Below the pieces are notes generated by a model. The model saw only the letters and a list, made by a program, of their open reading frames with translations. It was not told the DNA's origin and did not search any database. DNA of 64,000 bases. Source: Nemertoderma westbladi (Eukaryota > Animalia > Xenacoelomorpha). Below, piece after piece: positions 2,962-59,400 of this stretch (position 1 is its first letter; each line of letters starts with the position of its first letter). The position numbers and the translations under genes are program-made. The stretch covers positions 1 through 64,000 of the forward strand of contig JAUCBJ010006043.1 in assembly GCA_032718475.1 (NCBI GenBank), given 5' to 3'.

Positions 2962-3689
2962 GTACACGTACGGTAGGCTACCTACAGTCATGACAGTACA
3001 GACCTCTACCACAGTTAGACAGTTAGCGAGTTAGGTACTGTAGGTAATTTTTAGCCGTCAGTGTCAGGCCGTCGCCGTCAGCATCAGGCCGTCGCCGTCA
3101 GCGTCAGGCCGTCTGTCCGTGCTGCCTTGATAAATTAATTACTTAAATTTTAAATTGAAAATTCGTAAATCTATAAATTATGAAATTAATTAGACCTACA
3201 GTATGATTGATTATGAGCGATTGGCGAATGATAACCATACAGCCATACTTTATTTTTTTTTAAATAAATAATTAAATTTTTAAAATTTTTGAAAAACTCC
3301 GGCTCCTGCTCCGGCTCCGGCCAAATTGTCCAACTCCGGCTCCTGCTCCGGCTCCGGCCAAATCCCAACTCCGATCGAGCCCTAGTACATAGTAGTAGTA
3401 GTACACCTGTACATATACCAATACTGGTGAACCGGTACAATAAATAACAGTTGACAGTCAGTCGGGCACTTTGTCAATATTATGATTTGAAAAGTAAGAA
3501 ATGTTTTTTTGTAAAGAGAATATCTATTTTAATTAAAATATTGTTGAATCCAACCAATCTATATTGTTGTTTGTAATAATTTTAATGATATGTTTTATTG
3601 CATGTCAATATTGACATCTAATATCAATATTGACATGAACGCTGGGTTCTTATGTATATTTCACCCCCACCAAATTTATTTAGAGGCCT

Positions 3690-5615
3690 TCAAGTAACAT
3701 CACAAATACTGAAAAGAGCTGTCAAAACGCTTCAGTTAGACAGTTAGAGGCATTCTTGCTGCATTGTAAATACTGAAAAGAGCTTTTGAAACTATTCAGG
3801 CCTTCGCGCAGCATGTTAAATACTGAAAAAGAGCTACTAAAACCGTTCAGAGTCCTTTGTGCAGCATGATAAATGCCGAAAAGTGCAGTTGAAATTGTTC
3901 AGAGGGTTTCATGTATCATGAGAAAAACTGAAAAGAACTGATAAAACTGCCCACGCCCAGGGGCCTTCACACAGTTTGAAAAATACATAAAAGATCTTTC
4001 AAAGCTGCTCAGAGACCTTTGTGCAGCATGATAAACGCCGAAAAGAGATGTTGAAACTATTCAGAGCTTTGTGCAGCATGATAAATGCTGAAAAGAGCTG
4101 TTGAAACTGTTCAGAGGTCTTCGAGCAGCTTGAGAAGGACTGAAAATAAGTTTTGAAACTTTCAGCCTTCGCACAGAATCTGAAATTCTGAAGAGTTGAT
4201 AAAACTGTTCAGAGTTCTTCATGCAGCATGATAAATGCTGAAAATAACATTTGAAGTTGTTCAGAGTGCTTTGTGCAATATGAGCATGCCGAAAATAGCT
4301 GTTGAAACTGTTGTGAGGCCTTCGTGCAGCATGATAAATGCTGAAAAGAGCTGATAAAACTGTTCAGAGTCCTTCATGCAGCATGATAAATGCTGAAAAT
4401 ATCATTTGAAGTTGTTCAGAGGGCTTTGTGCAATATGACAATGTCGAAAATAGCTGTTGAAACTGTTCAGATGCCTTCGTGAATCATGATAAATGCTGAA
4501 AAGGGCTTTTAAAACTGCTAAAAAGGCCTTCATGCAGGATGAGAAATACTGAAAAGAGCTGATGAAACTGTTCAGAGTCCTTCATGCAGCATGATAAATG
4601 CAGCATGATAAATGATAAATGCTGAAAATAACATTTGAAGTTATTCAGTTCAGAGGGCTTTGTGCAATATGAGAATGCCGAAAATAGCTGTTGAAACTGT
4701 TGCAGAAGCCTTCGTGCAGCATGATAAATGCTGAAAAGGGCTGTTAAAACTGCTAAAAGGCCTTCATGCAGCATGAGAAATATTGAAAAGAGCTGATAAA
4801 ACTGTTCAGAGTCCTTCATGCAGCATGATAAATGCTGAAAATAACATTTGAAGTTGTTCAGAGGGCTTTGTGCAATATGAGAATGCCGAAAATAGCTGTT
4901 GAAACTGTTCAGATGCCTTCATGCAGCATGATAAATGCTGAAAAGGGCTGTTAAAATTGCTAAAAAGGCATTCATGCAGCATGATAAATACTGAAAAGAG
5001 CTGATAAAACTGTTCAGAGTCCTCAAGGCAGCATGATAAATGCTGAAAATAACATTTGAAGTTGTTCAGAGGACTTCGTGCAGTATGAGAATGCCGAAAA
5101 TAGCTGTCGAATCTGTTTAGAGGCTTTCGTGCAGCATGGGAAATGCTGAAAAGAGCTGTTGAAACTGTTAAAAGCCCTCGTGCAGCATGATAAATATCGA
5201 GAAGAGCTCATAAAACTGTTCAGAATCCTTCATGCAGCATGATAAATGCTGAAAAGACCAGTTGACATTGTTCCTGAGGGCTTCGTGCAACATGAGAAAT
5301 GTTGAAAATAGCTGTTAGAACTGTTCAGAGACCTTCATGAGTTCATGCAGCATGATAAATGCTGAAATGAGCTGTTTAAATTGTTCAGAGGCCTTTGTGC
5401 TGTGCAGCTTGATAAATACTGAAATAGCTGCGAAATTATCCAGGCCTTTGCGCAGCATGTGAAATGCTTTGAAACTGTAAAAGGTTTTGAAACTGTTCTG
5501 AAGCCTTTGCGATCGTCGCAATTTTCCAACCATGCAGACACGAATTGTTGAAACAATTCAGAGGCCTTCGTGCAGCATGGGAAATACTGAAAAGGACTGT
5601 TGAAACGGTTGATAA
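3690..5615. repeat. ~52-bp tandem satellite with a ~208-bp (4-mer) higher-order period in the middle
   Basis: Consensus GCAGCATGATAAATGCTGAAAAGAGCTGTTGAAACTGTTCAGAGGCCTTCGT; the variant AATAACATTTGAAGTT recurs at ~4242, 4398, 4627, 4839 and 5048. Confidence 0.9.
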
Positions 5616-6580
5616 GGTAGGCCTATACTATGACAGATACTTAAACTGAATGCCAAATAATATAAATGATCAGACCACCCTGAAAACATACAGTAGCTGT
5701 TAACACTGTAACATGCCAAGCCAATCGCCAATACTGATAAACAACAACTATTATTTATTTATTTATTACTTCTTTAATAGCTGAATAGGGGGGGGGGGGG
5801 GGGGGGACTGGACGCAATACAAATTATTAGTTTCCAGTTACGAATTCGAGCAATCAGTGTCAGTTAACCTTTTATCATCAGCGTACCATATCGTAGTTGG
5901 TTCGGGGAGACAAAGTAGGCCTACCATATGTTAGAGACCCCCCCCCCCCCCCCCCCCACCCCCCGTCTCAAGGCAGCAAGCAGGCAAGGAACCAGAGATG
6001 CTAAATTTATTGTTACCAAATTATTAAAAGCTGTTACACAGTGTTAAGTGGATAAGACTGTAAGTGTAAGATATATTATAAAAACATTAAGCCTACATGT
6101 GATCCAGTAATCAGTCAGTATGTAGCTTTGTCAGGTATAAATTATAGTTCTGTAGTTATAGTACTGTAGTATAGTCTGTAGTGGGTAGTCTATAGGGTGG
6201 CGTGGCCTAACCCCACACTTCTGTTCTCATCATTACATGTCAATTTTGACATGTACGTCTATTTTAACATGAGAAAAACTTTAAGTATTTATATTAACTT
6301 AACGGCACGGTGAAAACAATTTCCGCACGGTCAAAAGTTTCTAATTTACTTATAAATTCGATTTTTATATTTAAAAAACACTTCTGGAAATATTTGAACA
6401 CATCACAGCATCAGGTAAAAAAATGTCAATATTGACATGTCCATGTCAATTTTGACATGCCCCATCCTGGAGAAACTAGCTCTACATGTCAATACTGCGT
6501 GTAATACTGCAGTTGTTAAAAATTCAGTGCCCCTGAAACCGGAAAGAACCGAAATACCGGTACGAGTATTAAACAATACA

Positions 6581-11184: not shown

Positions 11185-12612
11185 TGTTGCCGTTATCCCT
11201 ACACCAGGGGGGAAAAACGCCGATGCTGGAGACGTGACTTTACAGACCACCGAGCCCCGGCCAGTCACCGGATATTGATTGTGGAGAAGGAATGATTTCT
11301 GAGATGCAGGGTTGCGGTTGAGAAAAAGCTGCATTAGTTGGATATACTCTTTAATGTAACTGAACTCTGTTGAACCTTGTTGAACAATATTGAACCCTGT
11401 TGAACCCTGATTGAGAATAATTTTGGGCTTCCCCAAATCAATATACACCAAATATTCACAATAATTATACACGACAATATAAATCCCTACAGTATATTAT
11501 TTAATTACCCACTGTTCGCTCGGATTTTAGCCTAACTAATGTTCCCCAGATTTTCCCTCGGTCCTAGTCTTGATGCCGTAGTGTCGGTGTCGGTCGACCC
11601 TGTCGCGTGTCCGTTCCACCCCTCACGAACCCCGAAGGGAACGATCATCGAGAACCAGCACGGCTTGGCTAAGGGTCGGTCCAGTCGGTAGACTCTGTCG
11701 CGTGTCCGTTCCACCCCTCACGAACCCCGAAGGGTTCGATCATCGAGAACCAGAACGGCTTGGCTAGGGGTCCGTCGGTTCATCGCAGAAACCCAACCAC
11801 CTAGGCTTTCCGAGTCCCTTTCAGGCTCGTAGTCGCTTCGGCAGCCGAGAAACTGCTCCGAACAGTCGGTAGGCCAGTAGAGTCTAGTCCTTTGTCTTTC
11901 GACCCCGTCGCATGTCCGTCCCACCCCTCATGAACCCCGAAGGGAACGATCATCAAGAACCAGTACGACTTGGCTAAGGGGTCTGTCGTCGGTTCCCGTC
12001 GCAGATCCCCGGTACAAGCAGTTAGCGTTCCGAGTTCTTTTCAGTCTCGTAATAACTGCTGTTGACCAGAGACCGCTAAGGGCAGTCCTCGTCAAACCCT
12101 TCCTCTGTAAGTCGGTAGACCCTTTCGCGTGTCCGTCCCACCCCTCACGAACCCCGAAGGGAACGATCATCGAGAACCAGTACGGCTTGGCTAGGGGTCT
12201 GTCGTGTCGTTTCCCGTCGCAAATCCCTGACACAAGCAGTCAGCGTTCCGAGTTCTTTTCAGTCTCGTAATAACTGCTGTTGGCCAGGGACCGCTAAGGG
12301 CAGTCCTTGTCCTTTAGGCCTGGCGCGTTACCAAATCCACCTCTACAGGCAGCAGGAAGTTGGCCAGGGCCTAATAGTAATCAGGCTAACCTGAATACTG
12401 CTTGAATTTTCCATCCCCCCTGGCCCTTATAAACATGAAATTAGTCCCGTACCCTGTAAGTCGCCCCAAAGTTCGCCCATAAATCACCCCCAGTGTATAG
12501 AATGTGCCCAAAACCCATGGTCCCGCACCCAGTAGTAATATCGGAATAATCATTTTAAATAAATACAAAAAATATTCAACTCGCGTTATAAAAAGTTGAA
12601 ATACCGCGAACA
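11185..12612 (-). repeat. 3' LTR of element A (~1428 bp)
   Basis: Minus strand reads TGTTCGCGG...GGCAACA, preceded by the PPT GGGGGGGAC (12613-12621). It abuts the interrupted LINE. There is no second copy in the window to confirm the boundaries. Confidence 0.7.
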
Positions 12613-12786
12613 GTCCCCCCCAATGACCTTCGTGAAGTCCGTTGGTAGATTGAGTTTGCGTAGGTCATTCCCAATATAAAAAACCCAAATTTAATATTGC
12701 ATAGTTTTAATTAATTTGGCCTAGAGTTTATATATATATGTATAAAAATAAATGTTCGATAAATGTTCCTGGAATATCCCGATCCA

Positions 12787-15387
12787 CTATTTCTTTCTCT
12801 GATACGCCTTTCGTCTCTTCGCCCGTCGACTCTCATCGATCGCTATAGCTGGTAGAGGAGCGTCAACATCCATCGTGAGTAACGCTTCGGCTTGTCTCCT
12901 GGCGGCTCTTCCTTTCGATGGCATAGGGATCATGTTGGTTCGTCTTTCCAACTCAGACTTGCGTGCCTCTAGGAACCACTCTCCGTCACCGAACTCCTCT
13001 TTATACGAGTATAATCGTCTAATGACTTCAAATGGACCGAATAATCCGGCGCTCAGTAGCAGATCCACGTAATGGAAAGGTAGCATGGCCGACGTGTGGA
13101 GGCGTTCCGGGAAGGAGAAATACCCGCACGCCATCTCATGCGCGATATTCTGAGCGTTTCTCCGAACCTTGGTCTTTAAGTGGCTGTTTGCGTATGTTTC
13201 AAACATGACCATATTTCCCATAGCGGTTACGTCTTTGGTTGGACATTTGATATAGCAGCGGGGGCTAGAGGAATGTCCACGGAAACCGCACGTGGTGCAG
13301 AGGTTATATAGGATCGGACAGACGGAAACGTCGTGGCCCGATGTCGCGCAGTATGGGCAATAGAGTATCCCGATGAGCTGGAGGCACGAATCGGTAACCC
13401 GATTCCTTCTACCGCGTGGGCACTGCTCCGAACCGCAGTTGCCGCAAACCTCCAATTGCATCTCTCGACCGGGGAATATCGGAATCGGGAGGCCGACGTA
13501 ATATTCGAGTCGTCGGTCGCTCTTCGGAATATTCGCGGTGGCCGGTAGCCCGCGGAATGCTAGGCTTTTGCGTAGTAGGTTCTCGCTCCGATAACCTTCT
13601 TTGTGTCCCGTTGGTCTCAACTCAGACGACCGTTTCTGGCGGTGGATCCATTCAGTTTGCTCGGCGTACCAGCGGGTTAGTCGCATAGGGTCCTGAGGAA
13701 CGGAGGGTGTAGTAGCCACCGCTGGTCGGCGAAGAGGTGCTGGGGTTTTCGACGGAGGGATTCCGAGGAGATCGTCGGGAGTCGGCGCAGCGCTGGGGCC
13801 CTTCTCGACCAATATCGCTGAGCGGGTCCGTTGATTGCTGGTACTCGGAATCTCCGACGACCAGTCTTCGCCACCCGGGAAAGGATACGGGGATAACCTT
13901 TGGCACGTATCGCCGAAGTCGTTTAATGCGAAGGTAGTAACCAACTCCCTCGCAGGGCTACCGAAGCCGAGTGGTGAGGAAACGCCCGCTTCCGTCGTTG
14001 GTTCGGCGGAGGCAACCCGTTTGGCGGCCGGTTGGTAAGCGGCCTCCGGCTCGAGTTGTCGCTTCGGGGTGGAGAGTAGAACACCCTCGTTTAGCCATAT
14101 TTCTTCCCCTTCCGAAGAGATCAGAGGCTCCTCCGCACCGAGAAGTTCGGTAATCGTAGGGATGTCGTAAGGTCCGCTCTCGTCCCAGGAATCGATAACG
14201 GCGAGCGTTTTCGTCTCTCCCGGTGTAATGTTCTCGACCGCTTTGAACGCGTGGTTTATGACCTCGTTCCAGTCGTAGTCGACGAAGGAAAGGGGAACCG
14301 CCGTAATGAGGTTATCGAGAGTCTTACAGATAAACTTAGCGACAGTGTAACACTCCATAACGACGTAGATATAGCGCCGTCGATCGGGATTCTCCCACCT
14401 TTGGTGTATCGTCCACTTCTGATCAACGTCCTTCCATCGACCCTCTCGCTCACTCTTTATTTCTAATCCTGGGTATCCACCATATATTTTATTATAGTCC
14501 CGGAATTTCTGGGGTTTGAAGTCGATGCCGCCGTTTAGCACAGCGAGGTAGCCGATCCTGGATTTCTTCGGTCTCACCTCTTGGAATCCTCGCATGAACT
14601 CGGCGAATCGTAACCAGGCTAGTAGCGTTTGAGTGTCGATGCAATGGCTAAGGGCATTGAGGTCGTCTCGTCGGTTTCTTCCTGAAGGAGCGTTCGCGTA
14701 GTCGTTCCGGACGTTCGCCTTGATATCTGACCCGATTTTAATGACGTCGAAGTCGAAGAGGATCTTCTGGATTTCCGGAGGTAGCAACCAGATTGCTCCG
14801 GCTGCCTGCACTTCCTGTCTGGGTGTCGGAAATATTCGACACACCAATACCAAACCGTCCAGGGTTCCGAGGACGACGACCAAGGATCGACCGTATTCTT
14901 TCGCCCCGTACTTTTCTTGGTAGTCGTCGCGATTCTGGATGGTCGATATACGTTCCTCTCGAAGCGTTGCCGTACACTCCGACAGGTTTCCCCAGTGGGC
15001 GAGGTACGTACTCTTGTCGTCGACGAAACTTTGACATCTCGCCAACGTAATCGCTTTCGAGGTGGGCATTGCGTTTCCCTCATTGTCGTAGATCAAACAT
15101 CGGGATCTGTAGACGCTCTGCCGGAACGTTTCCCAAAACGACGAATCGTCCCCTCCGGTTGCCTTTGCATTCCGAGTTCTTTTCAGTCTCGTACTAGCAT
15201 CAGCTAACCGGAGGGCTCGTAGATTCTTGGAATCCGGTCCCTCTCGCCCGGTGAATTTAACGACTCGCACGTTCTCATTTAGCAGGGTGCTCCAATTTGT
15301 ATCAAAGTCAGGGGATCCAGGTTGCGAATATTCCAGTAGATCTATCGTGTTACGTAATTCGCCGATAATTTGGCGATTTGGATCCAT
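12787..15387 (-). CDS. Accessory ORF (866 aa): DEDDy/WRN-EXD-like 3'-5' exonuclease-fold domain, disordered linker, triple zinc-knuckle module and basic C-terminus
   Basis: ATG-initiated intact ORF. Motifs: IYDNEG (ExoI-like DxE), LLPPEIQKILFDFDVIKIGSDIKAN, CIDTQTL, YVVME (ExoIII-like); CGNC, CPYCx4Hx4C, CTTCGFRGH; C-terminal RRAKRRKAYQRKK. Confidence 0.75.
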   Translation of the reverse strand: MDPNRQIIGELRNTIDLLEYSQPGSPDFDTNWSTLLNENVRVVKFTGREGPDSKNLRALRLADASTRLKRTRNAKATGGDDSSFWETFRQSVYRSRCLIYDNEGNAMPTSKAITLARCQSFVDDKSTYLAHWGNLSECTATLREERISTIQNRDDYQEKYGAKEYGRSLVVVLGTLDGLVLVCRIFPTPRQEVQAAGAIWLLPPEIQKILFDFDVIKIGSDIKANVRNDYANAPSGRNRRDDLNALSHCIDTQTLLAWLRFAEFMRGFQEVRPKKSRIGYLAVLNGGIDFKPQKFRDYNKIYGGYPGLEIKSEREGRWKDVDQKWTIHQRWENPDRRRYIYVVMECYTVAKFICKTLDNLITAVPLSFVDYDWNEVINHAFKAVENITPGETKTLAVIDSWDESGPYDIPTITELLGAEEPLISSEGEEIWLNEGVLLSTPKRQLEPEAAYQPAAKRVASAEPTTEAGVSSPLGFGSPARELVTTFALNDFGDTCQRLSPYPFPGGEDWSSEIPSTSNQRTRSAILVEKGPSAAPTPDDLLGIPPSKTPAPLRRPAVATTPSVPQDPMRLTRWYAEQTEWIHRQKRSSELRPTGHKEGYRSENLLRKSLAFRGLPATANIPKSDRRLEYYVGLPIPIFPGREMQLEVCGNCGSEQCPRGRRNRVTDSCLQLIGILYCPYCATSGHDVSVCPILYNLCTTCGFRGHSSSPRCYIKCPTKDVTAMGNMVMFETYANSHLKTKVRRNAQNIAHEMACGYFSFPERLHTSAMLPFHYVDLLLSAGLFGPFEVIRRLYSYKEEFGDGEWFLEARKSELERRTNMIPMPSKGRAARRQAEALLTMDVDAPLPAIAIDESRRAKRRKAYQRKK

Positions 15388-15934
15388 ATTTACGATTATA
15401 TCCGTTACAAATTAGATCAGTTAATTATAAGTCCAGAAAGTCTGAAACTATAGCGATAGCAGAATAATTCAGTTTTTTATTTAATTCAGTTTATTAAATA
15501 ACATTGCTATATAGACATCTATCATCTTATTGCTAATACATTCAGCATTTACAGTTACTATAGCTATACATTAATATCCAACCAGTTTTTTATGACTTTT
15601 TTGTCCTTTTCTTTTTTCCAATTCTTTTCTTTAGACTTTTTTATACCTTTTTTTGTCTTTTTTCATTTCATTATTATTTCATCTCATTTTATTTATTTCC
15701 ACATATATTTCATCACATTTATTTCCACCATTTATTTCACATTTGTTTATTTCCACATCATCATTGGGGTTATAGCCCCCCGGCTATCATCATTTGTTAT
15801 AAGCGCAACACCAGGGTGCGCATCATTACATTTTCATCATCATACGCGTCACCATTCAGGTTTATAGTAGAGTTGTCTGATCCTTTTCATCATTTCCAAC
15901 TACATTCAATCATCTTCTTTGGTTAATCTTTGTC

Positions 15935-16360
15935 GTGGAAGGGGTGTTACGCGGCAATCTGGGATCTACAGCTGGACTCGTTACACCGCCTACGCCCCAA
16001 ACTGCGCACGTAACGGACAATGAAGACGCTGGGAGTGAAGTCACGTGGAGTGCACCAGGGACCCACCAGAATAACATTCCCAACAACATAAAGCTCAGTC
16101 GACGAAGTCATGTGGGATGGGGTTACGCAACATTCTGGGATCTACAGCTGGACTCGTTACACCGCCTACGCCCCAAAATCCACGCAACGGTCCCACCAGA
16201 ATAACGCGACTGAGAAACATAAAACCCTCTATCGTCGAAGTCATGTGGATGCACCATGGACCCACCAGAATAACGGGATAGAGGGGGTGTTGCGCGGCAA
16301 TCCGGGATCTACAGCTGGACTCGTTACACCGCCTACGCCCCGAACTGCGCACGCAACGGA
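15935..16360. repeat. Three imperfect ~170-bp repeats with an invariant 38-nt core, between pol end and accessory ORF
   Basis: GGGATCTACAGCTGGACTCGTTACACCGCCTACGCCCC ending at 15998, 16174 and 16341. Confidence 0.85.
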
Positions 16361-16635
16361 CAACATAACATACTGCGATGAATATAATGAATTCCACTTC
16401 AAATCTTTACCATTTCCAATAATCCAATATCGTTGGTCCCGATGACCAAAATCAGGGTAAACAATACATAAACGACCCTGCGTCAGTCGAAACATCTGCA
16501 GGGTGACGCTGGACTCCACATAACACACGAGGAAACACAAATACCATTGCATGGTTACAGTTGGTTTAAGGGGGTCCATTTTCATTGTCGATAAATCACA
16601 GTTTTATAAGAGTTTGTCAACATGATGAGAAGGGT

Positions 16636-17754
16636 CTAAACGCATTTGTAATTGTCACCAATGTCCGCAGCAGGATCTTGAGTAGGGAACTTATCACCTC
16701 TCGTAGAGTCACCGCTATCATTGCCTTCGAGAAGGCACAGCCTCTGGATAGGGCGTTGGTAGTGGCCCTTTTTATAATTGTCACCAATGTCCGCAGCAGG
16801 ATCTTGAGTAGGGAACTTGTCACCTCTCGTAGAGTCACCGCTGTCATTGCCTTCAAGAAGGCACAGCCTCTGGATAGGGCGTTGGTAGTGGCCCTTTGCC
16901 GTTCGTATCGTCACAGTCCTCGCAAGTCCGTCTTTGCTTGGGTGTATGGTCACGACCCGCGCCACAGGCCAGTGAACGCGGTCTTTGAGATCTTCTTTTA
17001 CTAGTACCATGTCGCCAACTGCGACGTTCCGGTATGTGTTGTTCCATTTCCTCCTGGTCCGGAGGGTTATGAGATACTCCTGGGCCCAGATTCTCCACCA
17101 ATGCGCTGCCAATGCTTGGGCCTTCTTCCAATTTGTATGTCTCGCGAACTCGCTGGGATCTGGGAACATGGTCTCTGGGAGAACATGAGTTTTGGGTCTC
17201 CCCAGTAGGTGATTAGGAGTAAGGGACTCAACTGAGGCGTTTGCCATCCAGGTATTACGGCAGATTAGTCCGTGCTCTCCCGTTAATGGTGTCAATGTTA
17301 TCAACGTCATTATTATCATCAACAACCTTATTAGCCACCAAAGCATGGGCAAGCGCCAATGTCCGTCTTTGGACGTTGCCTGATCAAAAATGTCGGTACA
17401 ATATTGATCTTCCTCGGACGGATTCTCGTCCTTCTCGGCAAACTCTCGGGTCTCCACATTAAAGCATCCGGTCATCTCCCGCTGGGTTCTCTCAGTCTCA
17501 AGGAAAAAATCATCGTCCAGGTCTGTAGCTGAGCAATAACCCACGGAGGTTACATTTTCTTTAATCTGACATTTAGGAAGGTATGTATAGGTGTCAGTAG
17601 TCTCTTCCTTGATGCCACAGAGGGTCCATCCCATTATTGTTCGTTCAGCGTAAAAGCCGTCATCCTTCTTTATGGATCGGGCGACATCTCCGGTTGGTAT
17701 GTGTAATTCCGGTGTATCAAGTCCGATCAGTAGGGTGATGCGGTTTACGTCCAA
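16636..17754 (-). pseudogene. Deleted BEL pol of A: post-protease region fused to integrase C-terminus (with a 126-bp tandem duplication)
   Basis: TLLIGLD..RTIMGWTLCG..WRLPMLW joined to LTPNHLLG..WWRIWAQEYL..VGDMVLV..WPVARV..DGLARTV..RPIQRLCLLE; no YVDD or catalytic D,D35E core. Confidence 0.85.
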
Positions 17755-17781
17755 CTGCGGACACCTCAGGTCTACATCGTC

Positions 17782-19357
17782 TCAGTCCAATTGTATGAGG
17801 GGGGCGTACTCGGCTGATTGTTGGAACCGCACTCGGAGGTCTGTGTGTACCAAGGCGTTCTTGATGGTTAACTTAACCGTTTCGTAGCCCTTAATCACTC
17901 CTTCCATCTGGAGTTGCACCTCCCCGGACTCTACCTCTCTGTTATCGGTGATGGTTTGTATGGGCCGTTTACAAGGTTCATATTCTAGGCCGAGTTGCTC
18001 GAGGAAATCCCGGTCGATGATGGTTCCGTCGGACCCATTATCAAGGAACGCGAGCGTCGTCAAGGATTTGCCGACTCCTTGAATCCTTACTGGGATTACC
18101 TTTGCGAAGACCATGTAGCGGCGATTTATAAGATTAATCGTGGCCGAAATATTTGTTACTTGTGATGCGTTAGTGGAGGTTTTGAACGGGTTGGTTTCTC
18201 TCCGTTGGGTTGTCCGGGTTCCTTTAGAAACGTGGTTCGTTTCTCCTCTTCGCTTGGCTTCGATCCGAAAGGGGAGGGTAGTGAAGTCGAAGTTCGCGGG
18301 GATGTGGAGGAGCGTGTGATGACGTAGGTCGTTACAAACCGCACAACACGACCTTTGGTGGCAATCCCGAACGTAGTGACCTGTTCCAAGACACCGGAAG
18401 CATCCTCGGTGTTTCGTAATCGCCTCGAAGCGTGGGACGAGTTCAGCAAACTGGAACTTTCCGCAGAATTCTAACTTATGTTTCTCTCCGCAGAAGAGAC
18501 ATATAGGGGAGGCTGTGGTGCCTTCCCTTTCGGGTGCCCAATTCGCTAGGTAGCATGCCCATTCTTCTGCTAAGGTCGGTTCCTCGTAATCCTCGTCATC
18601 CGAGTCCTCAGCCATACTGACGGCCATCGCACTCACAGGAGTAGGGTGGAAACTTGGGTTTGGAGTGGGTGCCCTGCTCTGGTAATTGCTCTCCATTGCG
18701 TCCAACTTGGCGAGACTCTGTTTCGAGAACATCGAGTCATTCATGGCTTCGGAGATATCGTCCAGGAATGCCGACATTTCGAGGAAGCTGGGATCTTGAT
18801 CTGGATGTCTGCGCCGGAGATGTACGCATTTATAGGCCCACTTACTTTGCAGCCATCCGGGGAACTTCCGGGCGATCTGTCGGAGGTTTAGAATGTTGTT
18901 CACCTGGTCCTCCTTATTTAAGGGTTTCAGAGTGTAGTAGGCATCCTTCATGGAATCTGAGAATTCCTGGAGGTTCTGTGGGTCCCCTAGTGATCCCGCG
19001 TCTTGTATCAGTTTCTCTAGAGTTTTATTAATTATAGTCCCGGTATTTCCGTATCTTTTGTCTAGAGTTTTCCATGCGTCATAGTATGCTTCATGAGAAC
19101 CTCCCTCAAAACAAGCGATGATTCGGCGTGGTTTGTCACCCAGGTATTGCGATAAATATACCAGTTTCTGTGCGTCGGCTATGTCCGTTGATCCAATCTG
19201 CACAAAGAACCGTTTCTTGAATCTGAGGTAATCGACGGGATCTCCTTCGAAGGTGCGGATCTCCATCTTAGGCATGGCAAGGTGGTTCTCCAACGCCCGG
19301 ATAATACTGATGTCGTCTGAACTGGAGTGACTCAGAGGGTTATAGTTATTGGCACTC
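17782..19357 (-). CDS. BEL/Pao Gag-protease of A (N-terminus lost)
   Basis: MPKMEIRTFEGDP (DUF1759-type region), three Cys/His knuckles (CLFC..HKLEFC, CFRCLGTGHYVRDC, CAVC..HHTLLH), protease FLDNGS. Confidence 0.85.
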
Positions 19358-20050
19358 ACATTTGTCGTGGTTAAAAAGAAGTTGCCACAATTTGCTCCAG
19401 CGGTCCAGGACATCCAAATCACTTTGTAGTAGGGCAATAGATGTGATGTTCCTGGGGTCGAATATAGCGCTTTGAGGTCATTGGTGAAAAGATGAATGAG
19501 TAGAGTTGGAACATCATTCACATATCCAAGTAATAGGAAAACTCCAGCAACACTTCCCTGAGGAACACCATTGTCAAAATGTAGCCACAGTGATGCTTTC
19601 CCACTGATGACCACGGGTTGGTATCTACAAGATAGAAAGACCTGAAACCAATTTAATAACTTGCCAGTTATTCCAAGGGCCTGCAAATTGACAATCAGTC
19701 TCTGGTGTGGCACTGAATCAAAGGCTTTCTCTAAGTCCAAGTACACATCGATGCACATGCGATCATCTAGTACTTTGAACCAATGGAAGATACAATCAAG
19801 TAGTTGCAGAGGGCATGATCGCCATTTCTGCTTTTCTGGAAACAGTATTGGTCATAGGGTATATATAAGGTTATTTCCCTTCATGTTGCTGTATGTTTCA
19901 TTGACAATATTTCGTTCCATAAGTTTGCAGACCACTAATGTTAGACTGATAGATGTTAAGTTTTCACACAAATATTTACTACCATTCTTAAATTGTGGGG
20001 AAATGTTGGCGAGCTTCCAAACAACTGTCTGGTAGCGGTCCTTCATTCAT
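19358..20050 (-). pseudogene. Decayed CR1-type LINE RT fragment
   Basis: ISLTLVVCKLMERNI; DVYLDLEKAFDSVPH; GVPQGSV; frameshifted. Confidence 0.8.
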
Positions 20051-21252
20051 TGACTTATTAAATAATGAAGCCAGGGGTAAGCCTTTATCTCGTTATTGGC
20101 CCCGATAAAGTTGGTACCTTTATCTGATCGCATGGTGTTGCTAGTCCCAAAGCGAGCGATTTGTCGGCGTAGGCTGAGTATGAAACTATTAGTAGATAAA
20201 TCATTCACCATGTCCAGATGAATCGCTCTTACAAAGTCATAAAGTCTTACGAAGTCTTACAAACAAATATAACGCACCATCGCTTGACTATAGTTCGAGC
20301 GCGGTACACTTCAATAGGGCCAAATAAATCCACACCAGTGTTAGTAAAGGGTGGTTCATAACAGCTTACTCTTTCCCTAGGTAATTCTGCCTCTCGCTGG
20401 GTTAAAGGCCTAATGCTTTCCTACAGGGTATGCAGTTCCTAAGAACTTGGTTTAGTGCTTTACGTGGCTTATAAAAATAATAGCGCATTCTAACTTCGCT
20501 AAGAAGTCGTTCCCTACTTGCATGATAAAGATTACTATGGACATCTACAATCATCTTGATTTGTATTTCAAGATTTTTGATGATGATGGGGTACTTAGTG
20601 TCAAAGGAAAGTGGTACATTAGTTAATCTCCCTCCAACACGTATGAGTCTGTCAAACATCATACTGGACAAAGAATCCTTTAAGTGCATCTGCGGATTTT
20701 TCATCAGCAGGAAATGCTTCTCAGGATCATCATGGCACTGTAGAAGCCTCAGTAGTTGCTTATTGGTATTGTCATGCTCCTGATGCGTGATCTTGTCCGT
20801 TAAAAACTGTGAATTTCTTTAGTCTTGGAATAATGGTGGTGGAAAAGCCGTTTCAAATACGTGATTGCTTTACAATGTCTATTCCAAGCTCTCTTCACTA
20901 GTGGTGAGAGTCCTTTAGAGACATCAGGTATCCCAGTCTTCCAATCTTGGTTCTGAAAATAGGCCACAGTCCCGTTCGGGGTTCGTGGTGTGGCATCATT
21001 GTTGTCATCGGCAGCGTGTAGAATCGATAGATCGAGCATCGGTTTAAACAGCTTGGATTTACTCGTCCGCATCTTTGGCTTAACAGTTTCCGCTCCCTTG
21101 GCTTGTCTGATCTCGGCAGTGGTGAGATGGGGGGGGGGGGGGCATTCCTCTTCTCCTTTACTCAGGAAGTCGGGGCCACCTAGGCAATCTGGTGTCTCAG
21201 TTAGTTCCTTGGGTGTAGCTCCTCTGGAGGCTATGACAGCAGGATTAATAGT
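19358..21252 (-). repeat. Left arm of a ~1.9-kb inverted duplication (partner 29671-31587)
   Basis: Near-identical reverse complement; paired ORFs (e.g. 20402-20704 and 30231-30533) differ at only a few residues. Confidence 0.95.
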
Positions 21253-29670: not shown

Positions 29671-31587
29671 ACTATTAATCCTGCTGTCATAGCCTCCAGA
29701 GGAGCTACACCCAAGGAACTAACTGAGACACCAGATTGCCTAGGTGGCCCCGACTTCCTGAGTAAAGAAGAAGAGGAATGCCCCCCCCCCCCCCCCCCCG
29801 CCCCCATCTCACCACTGCCGAGATCAGACAAGCCAAGGGAGCGGAAACTGTTAAGCCAAAGATGCGGACGAGTAAATCCAAGCTGTTTAAACCGATGCTC
29901 GATCTATCGATTCTACACGCTGCCGATGACAACAATGATGCCACACCAACCGGGATGAACCGGGACTGTGGCCTATATTCAGAACCAAGATTGGAAGACT
30001 GGGATACCTGATGTCTCTAAAGGACTCTCACCACTAGTGAAGAGAGCTTGGAATAGACATTGTAAAGCAATCACGTATTTGAAACGGCTTTTCCACCACC
30101 ATTATTCCAAGACTAAAGAAATTCACAGTTTTTAACGGACAAGATCACGCATCAGGAGCATGACAATACCAATAAGCAACTACTGAGGCTTCTACAGTGC
30201 CATGATGATCCTGAGAAGCATTTCCTGCTGATGAAAAATCCGCAGATGCACTTAAAGGATTCTTTGTCCAGTATGATGTTTGACAGACTCATACGTGTTG
30301 GAGGGAGATTAACTAATGCACCACTTTCCTTTGACACTAAGTACCCCATCATCATCAAAAATCTTGAAATACAAATCAAGATGATTGTAGATGTCCATAG
30401 TAATCTTTATCATGCAAGTAGGGAACGAGTTCTTAGCGAAGTTAGAATGCGCTATTATTTTTATAAGCCACATAAAGCACTAAACCAAGTTCTTAGGAAC
30501 TGCATACCCTGTAGGAAAGCATTAGGCCTTTAACCCAGCGAGAGGCAGAATTACCTAGGGAAAGAGTAAGCTGTTATGAACCACCCTTTACTAACACTGG
30601 TGTGGATTTATTTGGCCCTATTGAAGTGTACCGCGCTCGAACTATAGTCAAGCGATGGTGCGTTATATTTGTTTGTAAGACTTCGTAAGACTTTATGACT
30701 TTGTAAGAGCGATTCATCTGGACATGGTGAATGATTTATCTACTAATAGTTTCATACTCAGCCTACGCCGACAAATCGCTCACTTTGGGACTAGCAACAC
30801 CATGTGATCAGATAAAGGTACCAACTTTATCGGGGCCAATAACGAGATAAAGGCTTACCCCTGGCTTCCCCTGGCTTCATTTTTTAATAAGTCAATGAAT
30901 GAAGGAGCGCTACCAGACAGTTGTTTGGAAGCTCGCCAACATTTCCCCACAATTTAAGAATGGTGGTAAATATTTGTGTGAAAACTTAACATCTATCAGT
31001 CTAACATTAGTGGTCTGCAAACTTATGGAACGAAATATTGTCAATGAAACATACAGCAACATGAAGGGAAATAACCTTATATATACCCTATGACCAATAC
31101 TGTTTCCAGAAAAGCAGAAATGGCGATCATGCCCTCTGCAACTACGTGATTGTATCTTCCATTGGTTCAAAGTACTAGATGATCGCATGTGCATCGATGT
31201 GTACTTGGACTTAGAGAAAGCCTTTGATTCAGTGCCACACCAGAGACTGATTGTCAATTTGCAGGCCCTTGGAATAACTGGCAAGTTATTAAATTGGTTT
31301 CAGGTCTTTCTATCTTGTAGATACCAACCCGTGGTCATCAGTGGGAAAGCATCACCGTGGCTACATTTTGACAATGGTGTTCCTCAGGGAAGTGTTGCTG
31401 GAGTTTTCCTATTCCTTGGATACGTGAATGATGTTCCAACTCTACTCATTCATCTTTTCACCAATGACATCAAAGCGCTATATTCGACCCCAGGAACATC
31501 ACATCTATTGCCCTACTACAAAGTAATTTGGATGTCCTGGACCGCTGGAGCAAATTGTGGCAACTTCTTTTTAACCACGACAAATGT
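29671..31587 (+). repeat. Right arm of the inverted duplication (BEL RNaseH/IN remnant plus CR1 RT fragment)
   Basis: Reverse complement of 19358-21252; here the CR1 fragment continues past 31587. Confidence 0.95.
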
Positions 31588-31862
31588 AAGGTAATGCTCG
31601 ACCACTCACTAACAGACTAAAGTCCACAGATTTACAAAAATACTTGGGAGTCCTGTAGAGAACATGACATTGGTGATTGGTTTGTCAACACATTAATTCA
31701 ACACATTACCCTTTCTGTCTTTGAGACTATTATCATGTAATCTTTAGTCAATCAATGTGCAATGCAATGCAATGTGCAATGCAAAGTGTGTGCAAGGGAA
31801 TTGCCATAAAGGGTGAAGGAATATTGTAAGGGGATGGTGATGTTTTAGATGGAAATAAACAA

Positions 31863-32391
31863 TGTTAGCTTATTCAATCCCGCTAACACCCCATAAAGTT
31901 AAGCCGATAAGCAATATTGGGGGCCACGAGATTGGGTAATCACCAACTCGTGTCACCCCAACAAAATGGGAAGGAGAAACACAATAAGGGTAAGGGGCCA
32001 AACCCCTAACAGAGAGAGAACAGGTGGAGTGAACGGGAACACTCCAAAGGGTGCCAACAAGGGTATCAACCAATCAGAGGGGGGAAAGGCATCGATTAGG
32101 TAGAGTAACAAGGCCAACCCATGCAATATAGCCAGTTGGCAGTAATCATTTTACTCAGTTATCTCAGTATCATATTGGTGCTAGTTAGGTTAGTTAGTTT
32201 AGCTAGGGAAGGACCGGGACTTTAATTACCGTATCCCACCTTCCGTGTACGACATCATATATCTATATCTGTATCTTATACCTGAACATTATACGTGACA
32301 AACAACGTAAACCCTTTCACTCTTCACACACGGCGGGGACGCGTGAATTAACAAACCGGATAAACCGGGATTCTCCCTGGATCCCGTCACA
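31863..32391 (+). repeat. 5' LTR of C
   Basis: TGTTAGC...GTCACA; about 8 substitutions versus the 3' LTR by eye. Confidence 0.95.
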
Positions 32392-47904: not shown

Positions 47905-48405
47905 TAGTAGGTACGCAGTTAGTAGGCAGAAGTTAGTCAGTAAGAAGGTACGTAGTACCTAGAGTACGTAGTTAAGAGGTACGTAGTACCTAGAGTTAGT
48001 TAGTTAGTTAGGAGGTACGTAGTACCGTTAGTTAGGAGAGAGTTAAAGGGTACGTAGTACCGCTAGTTAGGAGAGAGTTAGAAGGTACATAGTACCGTGA
48101 GTTAGAGGGTACGTAGTACCGTTAGTTAGAGAGTTAGAGGGTACGTAGTACCGCTAGTTAGAGAGTTAGAGGGTACGTAGTACCGCTAGTTAGAGAGTTA
48201 GAGGGTACGTAGTACCGTTAGTTAGAGAGTTAGAGGGTACGTAGTACCGTTAGTTAGAGAGTTAGAGGGTACGTAGTACCGTTAGTTAGAGAGCAGTGAG
48301 AGGGTACGTAGTACCGTTAGTTAGAGAAGAGTTAGAGGGTACGTAGTACCATTAGTTAGTTAAAGAGAGCAAGAGTTAGTTAGAAAGTACGTAGTACTAG
48401 TTAGT
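47905..48405. repeat. 32-bp tandem repeat in the post-pol region of C
   Basis: GAGTTAGAGGGTACGTAGTACCGTTAGTTAGA units, each with a GGTAC-GTA-GTACC hairpin. Confidence 0.9.
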
Positions 48406-48783
48406 GAGAGATAGAGATAGAGGTAGTAGGGTATATAAAAGATATAGATATTAGTTAGCAGTTAGTAGCGAGAGGGGGGCATATGAGTACAGCTGGGTAA
48501 ATCGTGTGGCCACGCGACGCATACTGCTGTACTGCACAGGCCCACAGAGTAGGCCAGAATGTGGATTAGGAGATAGAATAATCCATAGGCAGTAGCAAGT
48601 AATAGGAAACAGTAAGGTAGTAGGATTAAAATCAGATCAAAACAAATAGGATAGATAGGGCTAAGAAGGGGAACAAATTATGGTAACAGTAATAAGAAAA
48701 TATAGGCTATTTAACTCAGAAATTCAGAAAGAGATAGGCCATCGAACTGAACTTAAACCACCTAAACCCATCACTCATCACGT

Positions 48784-49731
48784 TTGCGCCTTGGCAAGGC
48801 ACCACCTACTGGTGAGCGATCGGGCAGAGTTCGAGATGGCAGGCAAACTAGATGGGAGAGGAGAGAAGCAGAAGAGAGGGAGGAGGAAGCTAGGGCGCAG
48901 AGCTACGGCTTTGAGGAACAAACGACCTTAGACGAACTTCGTTGGGCTTCGTCAGGGAGTTCGGGGGAGTCTCTAGGGAAAGAACTGGGGTGGACGGTGG
49001 GATCACTGAGACAGTCGACGTCGGGATTGCAAGCGATGCCCATACCAGCGGGCGCCGAGGGCGATCAACCGCAAAGGAAGCTAGGGGAGCTTGAGGAATG
49101 GAGAGTTACGGGCAAGAACCAAGGTGGGAAGGGACATAGTGGGTCCACCGAGATACCGGGGTTGGGACCACTGCGAGAGGAGGACGAGGACGACGACGAG
49201 TTCGGAGAGATGCCGCCCATCGAGAGGATAGGCCACTCGGACACGGACTGGGTTGGCGGGAGGGTGGTGACGGCCAGTGGGGCGAGAGCCTTCTGGGACA
49301 AACCCGGCAAGCGGGCCTGGGTGCACGAGGGGCCGGCGATGGATTTCGCCGGGAGCACTATCAGGTTGGGCAAGCAACCGGGGACGGCACCACGGGTAGT
49401 ATTCGGAGAGACGATGCCCGGGAGGGGCGAGGAGATCGACGTAGACAGGGACGCTAACGTCCAGAAGTTCGCCTATCAGCGACTCCACAGACCGCGGAGA
49501 TCGCTTGGGATGAAAGACGACGTGGGGCGGGAGACATTGGTACTCGGTTGCGACTACTGTGGGAGACAGACCCACCAGGAAAGGAGCTGTTTGTACCGGT
49601 TCCAGAAAGGGACCAGCTGTCTCTACTGCCACGAGACGAGCCACAGGATGGGAGCGTGTCCACGGTTGCAGAACCGATGTCCGAAGTGCAACTTTCGGGG
49701 ACACCACGGACGCCAAGGAGGGATGGACTGA
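48784..49731 (+). CDS. Accessory ORF of C (~315 aa) with triple zinc-knuckle module homologous to A's accessory protein
   Basis: GRETLVLGCDYCG..H..SCL..CLYCx4Hx4CPRLQNRCPKCNFRGH; true start uncertain (no early in-frame ATG). Confidence 0.7.
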   Translation: MRLGKAPPTGERSGRVRDGRQTRWERREAEEREEEARAQSYGFEEQTTLDELRWASSGSSGESLGKELGWTVGSLRQSTSGLQAMPIPAGAEGDQPQRKLGELEEWRVTGKNQGGKGHSGSTEIPGLGPLREEDEDDDEFGEMPPIERIGHSDTDWVGGRVVTASGARAFWDKPGKRAWVHEGPAMDFAGSTIRLGKQPGTAPRVVFGETMPGRGEEIDVDRDANVQKFAYQRLHRPRRSLGMKDDVGRETLVLGCDYCGRQTHQERSCLYRFQKGTSCLYCHETSHRMGACPRLQNRCPKCNFRGHHGRQGGMD

Positions 49732-50420: not shown

Positions 50421-50949
50421 TGTTAGCTTATTCAATCCCGCTAACACCCCATAAAGTTAAGCCGATAAGCAATATTGGGGGCCACGAGATTGGGTGATCA
50501 CCAACTCATGTCACCCCAACAAAATGGGAAGGAGAAACACAATAAGGGTCAGGGGCCAAACCCCTAACAGAGAGAGAACAGGTGGAGTGAACGGGAACAC
50601 TCCAAAGGGCGCCAACAAGGGTATCAACCAATCAGAGGGGGGAAAGGCATCGATTAGGTAGAGTAACAAGGCCAACCCGTGCAATATAGCCAGTTGGCAG
50701 TAATCATTTTACTCAGTTATCTCAGTATCATATTGGTGCTAGTTAGGTTAGTTAGTTTAGCTAGGGAAGGACCGGGACTTTAATTACCGTATCCCGCCTT
50801 CCGTGTACGACATCATATATCTATATCTGTATCTTATACCTGAACATTATACGCGACAAACAACGTAAACCCTTTCACTCTTCACACACGGCGGGGACGC
50901 GTGAATTAACAAACCGGATAAACCGGGATCCTCCCTGGATCCCGTCACA
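50421..50949 (+). repeat. 3' LTR of C
   Basis: Direct repeat of 31863-32391, preceded by PPT and followed by TSD. Confidence 0.95.
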
Positions 50950-51025: not shown

Positions 51026-51122
51026 AGATAGATAGATAGATAGATTTATTTATACATTATGTAAAAACAATAACAAATACACCAAACAATGTACCGGTAT
51101 AAAGGTATTGTCCAACATAACA
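51026..51122 (-). mobile_element. Extreme 3' stub of the CR1-group LINE seen at 6581-8570
   Basis: (AGAT)n followed by TTTATTTATACATTATGTAAAAACAATAACAAATACACC...CCAACATAAC, matching 6581-6670. Confidence 0.9.
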
Positions 51123-51552
51123 CATAGACTATGCCTCAGTGAGGCATAGTCTAAGCCTCAGTGAGTCATAGTCTATGCCTCAGTGAGGCATAGTCTATGC
51201 CTCAGTGAGTCATAGTCTATGCCTCAGTGCCCCAGTGAGGCATAGTCTATGCCTCAGTGAGGCATAGTCTATGCCTCAGTGAGTCATAGTCTATGCCTCA
51301 GTGCCTCAGTGAGGCATAGTCTATGCCTCAGTGCCTCAGTGAAGCATAGTCTATGCCTCAGTGAGTCATAGTCTATGCCTCAGTGCCTCAGTGAGGCAGA
51401 GTCTATGCCTCAGTGAGGCATAGTCTATGCCTCAGTGCCTCAATGAGGCATAGTCTATGCCTCAGTGAGGCATAGTCTATGCCTCAGTGCCTCAATGAGG
51501 CATAGTCTATGCCTCAGTGAGTCATAGTCTATGCCTCAGTGAGGCATAGTCT
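51123..51552. repeat. 22/30-bp quasi-palindromic minisatellite
   Basis: (CATAGTCTATGCCTCAGTGAGG)n with variants carrying an extra 8 bp (GCCTCAGT). Confidence 0.92.
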
Positions 51553-51614
51553 GTGTCAGGTCTTAAATGAGAGTCTTACAAATTCGAACGTCAACGAACA
51601 AATTCGATGGTTAC

Positions 51615-56486: not shown

Positions 56487-59400
56487 CTAGGGGCAATGTC
56501 TCCATTGATCTACATTGGAGTTAATATCGTCATTATCTGAGGAGTATGGTGTTCCCTCAGTTGGGTCGTCAACTTCACTGCTCTCCACTTCCCATTCACT
56601 TAATTGATATACCTGTTCTTTTGGTAATCTTTCCATTAGAGTTCTACGGGAAGGGCCAGTAAAGTACCAACCTACTCTAGTTCTTCCCGCATAGACTTGT
56701 AATGGTTGCGGTTGAGCAGGCCGTTTCTCCAATGTCTCAAGCGCTTCATGCCCATTTTGGCCGATGAGTATTTGCACTCCAGGGTAATCTGTGTTGAATC
56801 TAGGTATATTAAGCTGCTGGGTGGAATCGTCCTCATCCCAGTTATAAGGTTCTACTTGGCTGGTAGCGAAGTTCTTTATCGCCACCATTTTTACTGACCT
56901 TATACTATGTTCTCCTAGTTCATCCTGGGGGGTGGACAACGCACCTACATAATAATCCGCTATTACTGTAGATTTCCAAACCTGCATAATTCCTGACATG
57001 TTTAACTTAGTTCGGAACTTGGGTTGTCCAGCAAAGATGTCTTCGGCTAGTTCTTTGTCGATGAATGTTCCTGTGCTACCGGAGTCAAGGAGGGCGTTCA
57101 CTATATAACTCCTTTTAGGTCCGTGGACCCTTAATTGCACTACAGGAAATTCACGGATTCCTACATTGGAAGTTGGCGCTTTCCAAGATGGTTGTCGATC
57201 AGATGTAGTTAGGGTGAGGTCGCAGTCTGTGTCTTTTTCATACGTAAGTGCTCGATACACTGCGGTATTTATCAGGTAACAGGATTCGTTTTCGTTGGAG
57301 AATTCGTCCGTATAGAATCCTTCCATCTCAGAACATTGGTCAGTGTCGTTCACATCACTGAATTGGACATGTAGTTCGGACTCACTTACCTGACTCGGGC
57401 TGTTTCGTTCGAATTCCGTGTGCAACAAGATATGATGTTTTGCGCCGCACTTTGCACACCTTGCGTCGGAGTAACAGGTTCGCCGTTGGTGTCCTCGTCT
57501 GAGGCAATTATAACACAACCGCTTATCCCACATGACTTCACGTCTGTCCTTTAGTGATTTCCTCAGGAATTCATCACACGCACTTAAACGGTGGGGCCCG
57601 TCGCACAGCACACATTTTGGTTTGATGTTACTTACCTTACTTTGAGTAACGTTGTGCACACTCGTTCTTTCTTCGGGCTTTCTTACATGAATTTTCTTAG
57701 GAGACGTAGGAGGAGTTTTTCTTACCTGTTCTCTCCTGTCATTGGTTCGAGACTTGAATTTACTTACGTCCTTAGGCGCTGTGTTGTCATAGTAAGATCT
57801 TTCAGTGTCTTTCCCGCTGTCTTCCTCTTGAGAAGCCTGGCTTTCGCCATCGTCTGTATAACACACTGGTATTACCTTTCTCCTAGAAACGGGTTTCTCA
57901 CTTACCTTATTTTCCGGTGTCTTCTCTCTGGACTGTTTTAGAAGCTGTAATTTTACCTCTCCATCTAAGAATGACATGAGATCAGGCATGGTAGGGTCTC
58001 TTCGTTGTTGTTCCATCATATATAACACTTTCTTGTCCCAGCGTGTACCTACTCCACCCTTGGGCAAAGTAGATGCTAAGGCTCCTACAACCATAGAATT
58101 CTGGTATTCATGAGACTTACCTAACCAATCTAGTTGTCTACAGATCTCTTGAATCTCATCGGAAAACTCTATAATCCCGCTGCTAAGAAACTTTCGGGGC
58201 GCCATTAATTTCGCATATAAATACCTAGCTATGTTATTCCTATTACCATACCTGATGTTTAGGGTATCCCAAACTTGTCTTAATCCATCGGGATGTCCAA
58301 TAAACTTTAACGCCATTAACTTGGGAGATCCTTCCAAGCACTCGATGAGGAATCTAAGTTTCTCTCCGTTAGATAGCACAGAGTTCTGTATGTTATCTTT
58401 GTAATATTCATTAAAAGGTAACCATTTCATCTCATCTCCATTGAACTTGACGATCTCTCCCACCTTTACCGCTTGACGGGCTTCGGTTCTAGCCATTTGA
58501 CGCGTAAAACTTTCTTGGGCCATCGTATTATTTAATATCGAGTTATCGGTATATAAATTTCTCGGATTATTATCAAGTCTATATGGAATATCACTGTCAA
58601 CAGGTTTATAATTACCCTTAATAGGGTTTACTATAGGAGTTTCTACTTCACTAGCAGTATAGATGCATGTAGGCTCCACACCTTGCGCATGAAATACTTC
58701 AGACCTAACAGGTTGACACATTGTTACAGGGGGTGGTGGTATACCCTTTTGTGTATTTACTAATTTATCGAGTTCTAACGCGATACTTTGCTGCACTTCT
58801 TGCAACGCTAACCTACCCTCTCTTACTGCTCCCTTTAACTGCTGAACAGTCCCTTCCAACTCCCGGACCTGCTGGGAGGAACATTTACAATGTTCCCTCA
58901 GCTGCCCGAGCAGGAGACCCATCTCCCGTCGTCCCTCAGCTACCCACTCGACCGCCGAAGAGGGAGTCGCCAACATAGTAGCGGGCAAGCGAGAGACGAC
59001 GGGCGATAAATTCTTGATATCTCGCTCGGCGTCCAGGATGGGTTCGGACTCGGGAACAGTCCTACTGGGCACAGGTAGTTTTGTGCTGTGCAAAGGGAAT
59101 TTAGAGGTAGGTTCTGGGAGTACAGGTGTCTCTATCACCGAAGGGGTGGCTTCGAGAACAGGCCTAATTATTTCAGGCTCATCTACTATAGTAGGGAGTC
59201 TTTCTACTGTAATAATTTGGTCTGTGGGTTCTGTACCACAGCGAGTTCTGTAATACACTGGATAGTCTACACTATCCAGTTGCATTCTCACCTCAGGAGG
59301 TACCGTCCGCTTGAGCATCCGTCTACGTCCGCTTGAACGAGATTTATTACCTCTACCTTCGGGATCTCTTATATCACCTTCATCGGAGGAGGCAAATCCC

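Follow-up and report, generated by a model that had tools for sequence, protein, structure and literature searches.

The question raised by this locus is why the long terminal repeat (LTR) of a retroelement should contain a series of small, repeated RNA modules, and what these modules might do for the element. The window analysed, i.e. the whole stretch of 64,000 nucleotides, contains on its minus strand a decayed copy of a Bel/Pao element (element A), in whose LTR the initial annotation had recognized an array of structured RNA cassettes. The presence of this array within the LTR, on the sense strand of the element, was confirmed by our analysis: four cassettes of 82-83 nt (A) were found exactly where they had been placed, and the three GAAA-capped hairpins (B) described as interleaved with them were also present. 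The features relevant to this study are listed below.

11185..12612, minus strand: 3' LTR of Bel/Pao element A, 1,428 bp, with TGTT...AACA ends
11350..11363, minus strand: candidate start TCAGTT (11363) of a short-R model with ATTAAA (11355) just behind it, which would place the array in U3
11500..11505, minus strand: candidate poly(A) signal of a long-R model, ATTAAA followed by a GT/T-rich stretch
11596..11677, minus strand: cassette A1, k-turn-pattern hairpin with UUCG cap
11691..11772, minus strand: cassette A2, k-turn-pattern hairpin ending in GAGUC
11785..11856, minus strand: hairpin B1, loop-E pattern ACUA/GAA, GAAA tetraloop
11901..11983, minus strand: cassette A3, decayed, with no match in the k-turn scan
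12001..12076, minus strand: hairpin B2, loop-E pattern AUUA/GAA
12118..12199, minus strand: cassette A4, k-turn-pattern hairpin
12219..12294, minus strand: hairpin B3, loop-E pattern AUUA/GAA
12399..12431, minus strand: candidate promoter of the long-R model, TATAA (12431) and initiator-like GCAGT (12401), a consensus match only
12613..12621, minus strand: polypurine tract, directly before the element A LTR
12787..15387, minus strand: ORF3, 866 aa, with a degenerate DEDDy-like exonuclease region, Cys/His knuckles at residues ~648-705 and basic NLS-like motifs
15151..15215, minus strand: fourth B hairpin, within the ORF3 coding sequence (codons ~58-79), canonical loop-E pattern AGUA/GAA
15946..16014, 16122..16188 and 16289..16357, minus strand: three copies of cassette C, between pol and ORF3
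16636..19851, minus strand: gag/protease (DUF1759, aspartyl protease) and integrase C-terminus (DUF5641) of element A

Element A and its LTR array

Element A presented the Bel/Pao domain set DUF1759, aspartyl protease and DUF5641 in line, followed in the sense direction by the C cassettes, ORF3, the polypurine tract and the LTR. A Peptidase_A17 domain was found in a fragment neighbouring the element, and a search for the integrase C-terminus gave 70 pattern matches, none of which was confirmed. A polypurine tract followed by an LTR with TG...CA ends is characteristic of Bel/Pao elements, as are two matching LTRs together with a PBS; the former was found in element A, the latter were not found in this copy, and BLAST of the LTR against the 64-kb window revealed no partner LTR. 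The copy is truncated and nested: its 5' end has been replaced by other DNA, it is internally deleted, and it carries an in-frame stop (TGA at 17782-17784) that may be private to this decayed copy. The LTR was inserted into a LINE reverse transcriptase fragment, with the LINE homology stopping at 11184. A 1.9-kb inverted duplication (97.5%) was also observed in the window (19355-21252 and 29671-31590), in which LINE and Pao pol fragments flank a LINE element; one of its arms replaces the element A 5' end. The element A family has many members, as 4,416 contigs from run X1 were placed on 1.9 kb. A contig of run X6, possibly an RNA run, covers the entire LTR and is therefore uninformative as to transcription or transcript ends. 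The length of this LTR exceeds the 0.2-1.2 kb range given for Belpaoviridae LTRs in the ICTV profile (PMC8742986).

In the sense direction, the modules of the array follow the order B3-A4-B2-A3-B1-A2-A1. The length of the array varies, with shorter versions in contigs of other copies, down to a minimum of one B and one A; this shortest form was carried by one contig of organism B, 886 nt long, with at least 255 letters flanking it on each side. A B-A-A array was seen in X1, and tandem A-A joints in X1, X3 and X4, with the caveat that contig joints within repeats may be assembly chimeras. Folding of the whole array gave a z value of -3.0 (20 shuffles). When the LTR was compared with Rfam, considering E values up to 10, the array had no match, and the only match in the LTR was an unrelated, sub-threshold one outside the array. 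No report of k-turn or loop-E arrays in LTRs was found in the literature covered by our search, which lies mostly outside subscription journals. We would place the array with the structured RNA elements already known to act in cis in LTR retroelements, and we consider it very probable that the A and B modules are selected RNA structures.

The initial annotation had proposed that the array lies in a very long R region, bracketed by TATAA upstream and ATTAAA downstream. Both motifs are present (at 12431 and 11505, respectively). An initiator-like motif exists as well, but GCAGT at 12401, located 32 nt from the TATA, is better spaced than the TCAG originally indicated at ~12393 (39 nt). The long-R model is possible, with an R of 917 nt containing seven ATGs; however, the second start/poly(A) pair would give a short R. 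Since both U3 and R of a 3' LTR are transcribed, the array would stand at the 3' end of the element RNA in either model, and from this arrangement we infer that it is transcribed as part of element A RNA. Five GTTCA-containing 10-nt repeats were observed just upstream of the TCAGTT motif (11361-11410, minus strand), in a part of the LTR that is gapped in the X4 and X6 contigs.

Structure and variation of the A and B modules

On the sense strand, cassette A begins with two stems, the outer one separated from the second by an internal loop, and continues with a GAU-GA/GA core and a 7-bp stem capped by UUCG. The core motif occurred four times in the 64 kb, versus 0.00 occurrences expected, and in none of 100 shuffles; the exact core pattern was found at no locus in the metagenome contigs. 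The closure of each cassette by GACCC..GGGUC, as initially described, holds in general, but A2 terminates in GAGUC and A3 is decayed. Folding of the A copies was not significantly better than that of shuffled sequences (z values from -0.1 to -1.5).

The kink-turn (k-turn) that had been recognized in cassette A was recovered as a pattern in three of the four copies, whereas A3 did not match and a shifted fold competes with the k-turn. The scan was asymmetric between strands, with matches in 3/4 A copies on the minus strand and 0/4 on the plus strand, and 50 of the 3000 shuffled versions of A4 also showed the pattern. The competing, register-shifted fold has a 5-nt bulge and was 3.9-5.0 kcal/mol better than the k-turn register in ViennaRNA, whose energy model does not score k-turns; across the A copies, the shifted fold and the k-turn fitted equally well (88.8% vs 88.0% paired). 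Given the lower energy and equal fit of this alternative, the k-turn in A is unproven. No compensatory (double) changes among the A copies were found in 27 pairs. In X1 and X3, the 3b base was variable in ~28% of the contig depth and the 3n base in 5-10%, indicating that the U-U pair of A is not invariant. On balance, we regard the formation of a k-turn by cassette A as reasonably likely.

Box C/D k-turns are described as being bound by 15.5K/L7Ae proteins, and the U48 box C/D test duplex used in the same work (PMC5579392) has the same bulge and the same 1b-3b and 1n-3n positions as cassette A. Both share a C-G pair at -1, a 3-nt bulge ending in U, tandem G-A/A-G pairs and U-U at 3b-3n, the sole difference in the core being the inverted 4b-4n pair, which is C-G in A rather than G-C. 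In contrast to the box C/D k-turn of that study, cassette A lacks a guide region and has a competing non-kinked fold.

Regarding hairpin B, loop-E strands A-N-U-A opposite G-A-A between helices were found in all four copies of the window, i.e. the three of the LTR and the one in ORF3. The bulged base of the loop is the only one that differs among these copies, being G in ORF3, C in B1 and U in B2 and B3. This pattern was obtained by chance in 0/3000 shuffles of B3 and in 1/3000 of the ORF3 hairpin, and folding of the LTR B regions gave z values of -2.2 to -2.6. The extrahelical base of the loop E/sarcin-ricin motif is reported to be G in the standard form and C in PSTVd (PMC6633198), where a C-to-U change at this base is described as isosteric and viable (PMC5823408). 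Hairpin B is therefore like PSTVd loop E, as presented in these sources, in having A-N-U-A/G-A-A between helices and a variable extrahelical base; it differs in being set in a GAAA-capped hairpin, in occurring both in a coding frame and in an LTR, and in that its loop E is a predicted one. A third element also shows an AGUA/GAA hairpin pattern within its gag ORF (59038-59071, minus strand); this pattern is probably due to chance, since its outer stem is unpaired.

The variation of these structures was considered both among the copies of the window and among family members in contigs. B2 and B3 differ at five of 26 pairs, all five of which remain paired, one of them through a double change. Slid controls were 27-48% paired, and the B2/B3 pair counts were not above the shuffle control of the tool (254/500). 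For the family, variants listed on 12108-12305 amounted to 30, and the 13 that reached at least 4% in X1 or X3 and lay in modelled cassettes were scored. Those left out were eight junction variants (12194-12199) for which 4% was attained solely in individual contigs of X4 or X6, six linker variants, and three that reached 4% in one X4 contig only, one of which (12232) would break a pair. None of the 13 scored variants broke a canonical pair, neither in A (0/7; P 0.015 with equal weights and 0.042 with transitions weighted threefold) nor in B (0/6; P 0.010 and 0.030, respectively). Furthermore, four of the seven A variants gained a pair (P below 0.001), and two B variants, taken together, replace an A-A by a C-G pair. 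The A-A position of the loop E is altered by a family variant at 12246, present at 5-21% in the runs of organism A and in the contig of X6. These P values lean to the optimistic side, because the sequences scored had also served to draw the structures, and because the variants mirror the paralogous copies to a large extent. The helix-preserving variation of the family is thus to be read as support for the predicted structures rather than as proof.

ORF3 and its copy of hairpin B

When the LTR was compared with the window by BLAST, hairpin B reappeared at 15164-15196, inside ORF3, with 30 of 33 nt identical (E 1e-6). The complete hairpin comprises 65 nt and folded with a z value of -4.69, none of 200 shuffles being as good. 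The initial annotation had overlooked this copy and had not recognized the UA/GA flanks of the B hairpins as loop E. The LTR and ORF3 versions of B seem to share variants, since a B1-like contig of X6 continues into the ORF3 sequence beside the hairpin. Mismatches to the ORF3 copy fell at third codon positions in 12 of 23 cases for B1 and in 10 of 22 for each of B2 and B3, and there is a weak hint that the LTR copies may derive from the ORF3 coding sequence. Two other ORF3 stretches (14935-15054 and 13285-13404, minus strand) gave z values of -2.6 and -2.4 against 15 mononucleotide shuffles.

ORF3 had no Pfam family, and word-based protein searches gave no match. A HMMER search against 1.84 billion proteins identified seven relatives, all sharing a C-terminal, CCHC-like Cys/His cluster that resembles those of Lin28, nucleocapsid and a CCHC-domain protein; the Atlas match for the Cys domain was below 0.9. 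Four of the seven also align across the N-terminal region, which resembles 3'-5' exonucleases (Atlas 0.92 for ORF3; PF01612 at E 0.2 for homolog P0001). The acidic ExoI motif is present in homologs P0001 and P0004 and missing in ORF3. Structure models of ORF3 were of low confidence (pLDDT 34 and 40) and had no Foldseek match at E 0.001. The protein also contains basic motifs, namely PAAKRV and a C-terminal Arg/Lys tail, which we take to be NLS-like. A match of residues 590-648 to eL30, a member of a k-turn-binding family (PDB, E 1.3), was discarded as likely due to chance in an unconserved linker. In homolog P0002, the Cys/His domain is present in two copies.

The same Cys/His domain (E 7e-6) was observed in an extra ORF (48766-49728, plus strand) of a neighbouring Bel/Pao element, element B, whose LTRs lie at 31863-32391 and 50421-50949; a 32-nt tandem repeat (47931-48416) precedes this ORF. 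Neither the A nor the B pattern was found in the element B LTR, indicating that the Cys domain does not require the array.

Possible roles of the array

The anatomy of element A suggests a function that we put forward tentatively, as a possible reading: the repeats of the B-A module may offer proteins several docking sites, as a multivalent array at the 3' end of the element RNA. The predicted k-turn of A would recruit a host L7Ae-family protein (15.5K/Snu13), and the loop-E motif of B would bind the ORF3 protein of the element itself. Once loaded, the array would allow the unspliced genomic RNA to leave the nucleus or to be stabilised, in a Rex-like manner, and the B copy in the coding sequence would act as an ORF3 feedback site on its own mRNA. 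Were this so, the locus would offer a small RNA-protein pair open to test, with a hairpin common to an accessory gene and an LTR, and perhaps an example from nature of k-turns by which a mobile element recruits a core snoRNP protein. A more far-reaching version can be formulated, which we consider improbable as a whole. According to it, a Bel/Pao lineage would have built complex-retrovirus-style control from scratch, by copying a loop-E hairpin from its accessory gene, pairing it with a snoRNP-mimicking k-turn and amplifying the pair in the LTR; an ORF3 protein derived from an exonuclease and bearing knuckles would assemble with host 15.5K on the array, so that the genomic RNA is exported or protected. 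The length of the array could then be tuned like a dial, and the hairpin in the coding sequence would provide feedback.

A precedent for an element protein acting on an LTR response element is provided by Rex of HTLV-1, whose Rex-responsive element (RxRE) is located in U3/R according to PMC3504254. The locus studied here differs in presenting a variable-number array of two small modules, one of them duplicated in the accessory gene. ORF3, in addition, is a protein unrelated to Rex, exonuclease-like and with knuckles, for which anatomy and precedent would suggest binding and export. In the Cer1 element of C. elegans, the accessory protein CERV, which contains a Cys-rich loop, is reported to be needed for export of unspliced RNA (PMC10309623). 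Cer1 is a different element, and it resembles element A in being an invertebrate LTR retrotransposon with an accessory protein; the main text of that paper names no RNA response element. The Juno and Vesta LTR elements of bdelloid rotifers also carry an extra ORF3 of exonuclease type (DEDDy), described as of unknown function and in some cases containing a Cys-His-Cys motif (PMC5408684). In these rotifer proteins the catalytic residues are kept, in contrast to element A ORF3, which lacks the acidic ExoI motif; the main text of the same paper mentions neither "ribozyme" nor "UTR". As presented in these two sources, the export of unspliced RNA by invertebrate LTR retrotransposons and the role of captured exonuclease-type ORF3s are open questions (PMC10309623, PMC5408684).

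Other explanations of the array were weighed against the docking of 15.5K and ORF3. Both modules might bind host proteins alone, in a CTE-like manner, for export, localisation or stability of the RNA, and the B copy in ORF3 would then be an extra host-factor site on the ORF3 mRNA. We consider this unlikely, even though k-turns and loop-E motifs are typically sites of host proteins (PMC5579392, PMC6633198), GA motifs serve as transport codes in retroposon-derived RNAs (PMC4033767), and element B carries the Cys domain with no array: it does not account for the position of the one B copy that lies elsewhere in the window, within the gene of a candidate RNA-binding protein. The array could also serve Gag/nucleocapsid or the ORF3 knuckles as a signal for packaging, dimerisation or strand transfer, with more copies giving better packaging. 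Its GNRA- and UUCG-capped hairpins, the resemblance of the ORF3 knuckles to nucleocapsid and the long-R model, which would place the array at both RNA ends, are in line with such a signal. Packaging signals, however, usually mark the genomic RNA only, and an array at the LTR end would be on every transcript; moreover, its hairpin loops are not self-complementary, and this role appears distinctly unlikely. The location of B near the ORF3 5' end would fit a translational or autoregulatory device in which the B of the ORF3 mRNA is an operator for ORF3, and a short LTR transcript (from TATA at 12431 to ATTAAA at 11505, ~0.9 kb, produced also from solo LTRs) acts as a decoy titrating ORF3 or host proteins. 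The TATA/initiator spacing and the poly(A) signal that bracket the array, and the seven ATGs of the putative R, point in the same direction, but the second start/poly(A) pair (11363-11350) yields a conventional short R, and we see only a small chance for this device.

Three further readings were weighed as well. A neutral, DNA-level tandem expansion would have duplicated a captured hairpin by template switching, its motifs being inherited or fortuitous. This would agree with the stability of A, no greater than that of shuffles, with the decay of A3, with the frequency of tandem repeats in the elements of the window and with the recent origin of the copies, which are 81-92% similar to the reference. 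Against it stand the k-turn pattern, which is asymmetric between strands, the shortest variant, which retains both modules, and the variation in A and B, which preserves the helices; its probability is slight. The initial annotation had also considered a ribozyme array or a small-RNA precursor, and neither found support in Rfam or in the core-pattern scans. A new class of self-cleaving ribozyme processing the LTR RNA would be favoured by the AUUA/GAA loop-E strands of B2 and B3, which we take to be the same as those of hairpin-ribozyme loop B. Repeated, compact structured RNAs in retroelement terminal repeats are, in addition, a known ribozyme setting, as in the hammerheads reported for retrozymes and Penelope-like elements (PMC4918200, PMC4209133), from which the element A array differs in lacking a hammerhead core. 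No Rfam ribozyme match was found at E up to 10, and scans of both LTR strands with patterns of known ribozymes revealed no hammerhead, twister, pistol, hatchet, HDV-like or hairpin core; cleavage within the LTR RNA of an autonomous element would presumably be costly as well, so that this class is very improbable. Equally remote is a SECIS-like recoding element or a small-RNA/snoRNA precursor. The AUGA/GA quartet in the A core and the in-frame TGA at 17782-17784 recall a SECIS, but the upper stem of A has 7 bp, instead of the long helix II of a SECIS, and a UUCG loop, with no apical AA, and the SECIS pattern was not found on the LTR sense strand. As for a box C/D snoRNA, the LTR contains no full box C of the form RUGAUGA, cassette A has no CUGA or terminal box D, and no Rfam snoRNA matched the array.

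Element A carries a further repeated module outside its LTR. Cassette C, present in three copies, has an invariant 38-nt core with a symmetric GUA/GUA loop and folded with z values of -2.0 to -3.0. Two double (compensatory) stem changes distinguish C1 from C3, and C2 shows a G-U intermediate at one of them. An Rfam search of 15000-16700 gave five sub-threshold matches, none of them to cassette C. Elsewhere in the window, a 52-nt satellite array was observed at 3650-5620, and a 22/30-nt, partly palindromic tandem array at 51058-51577.
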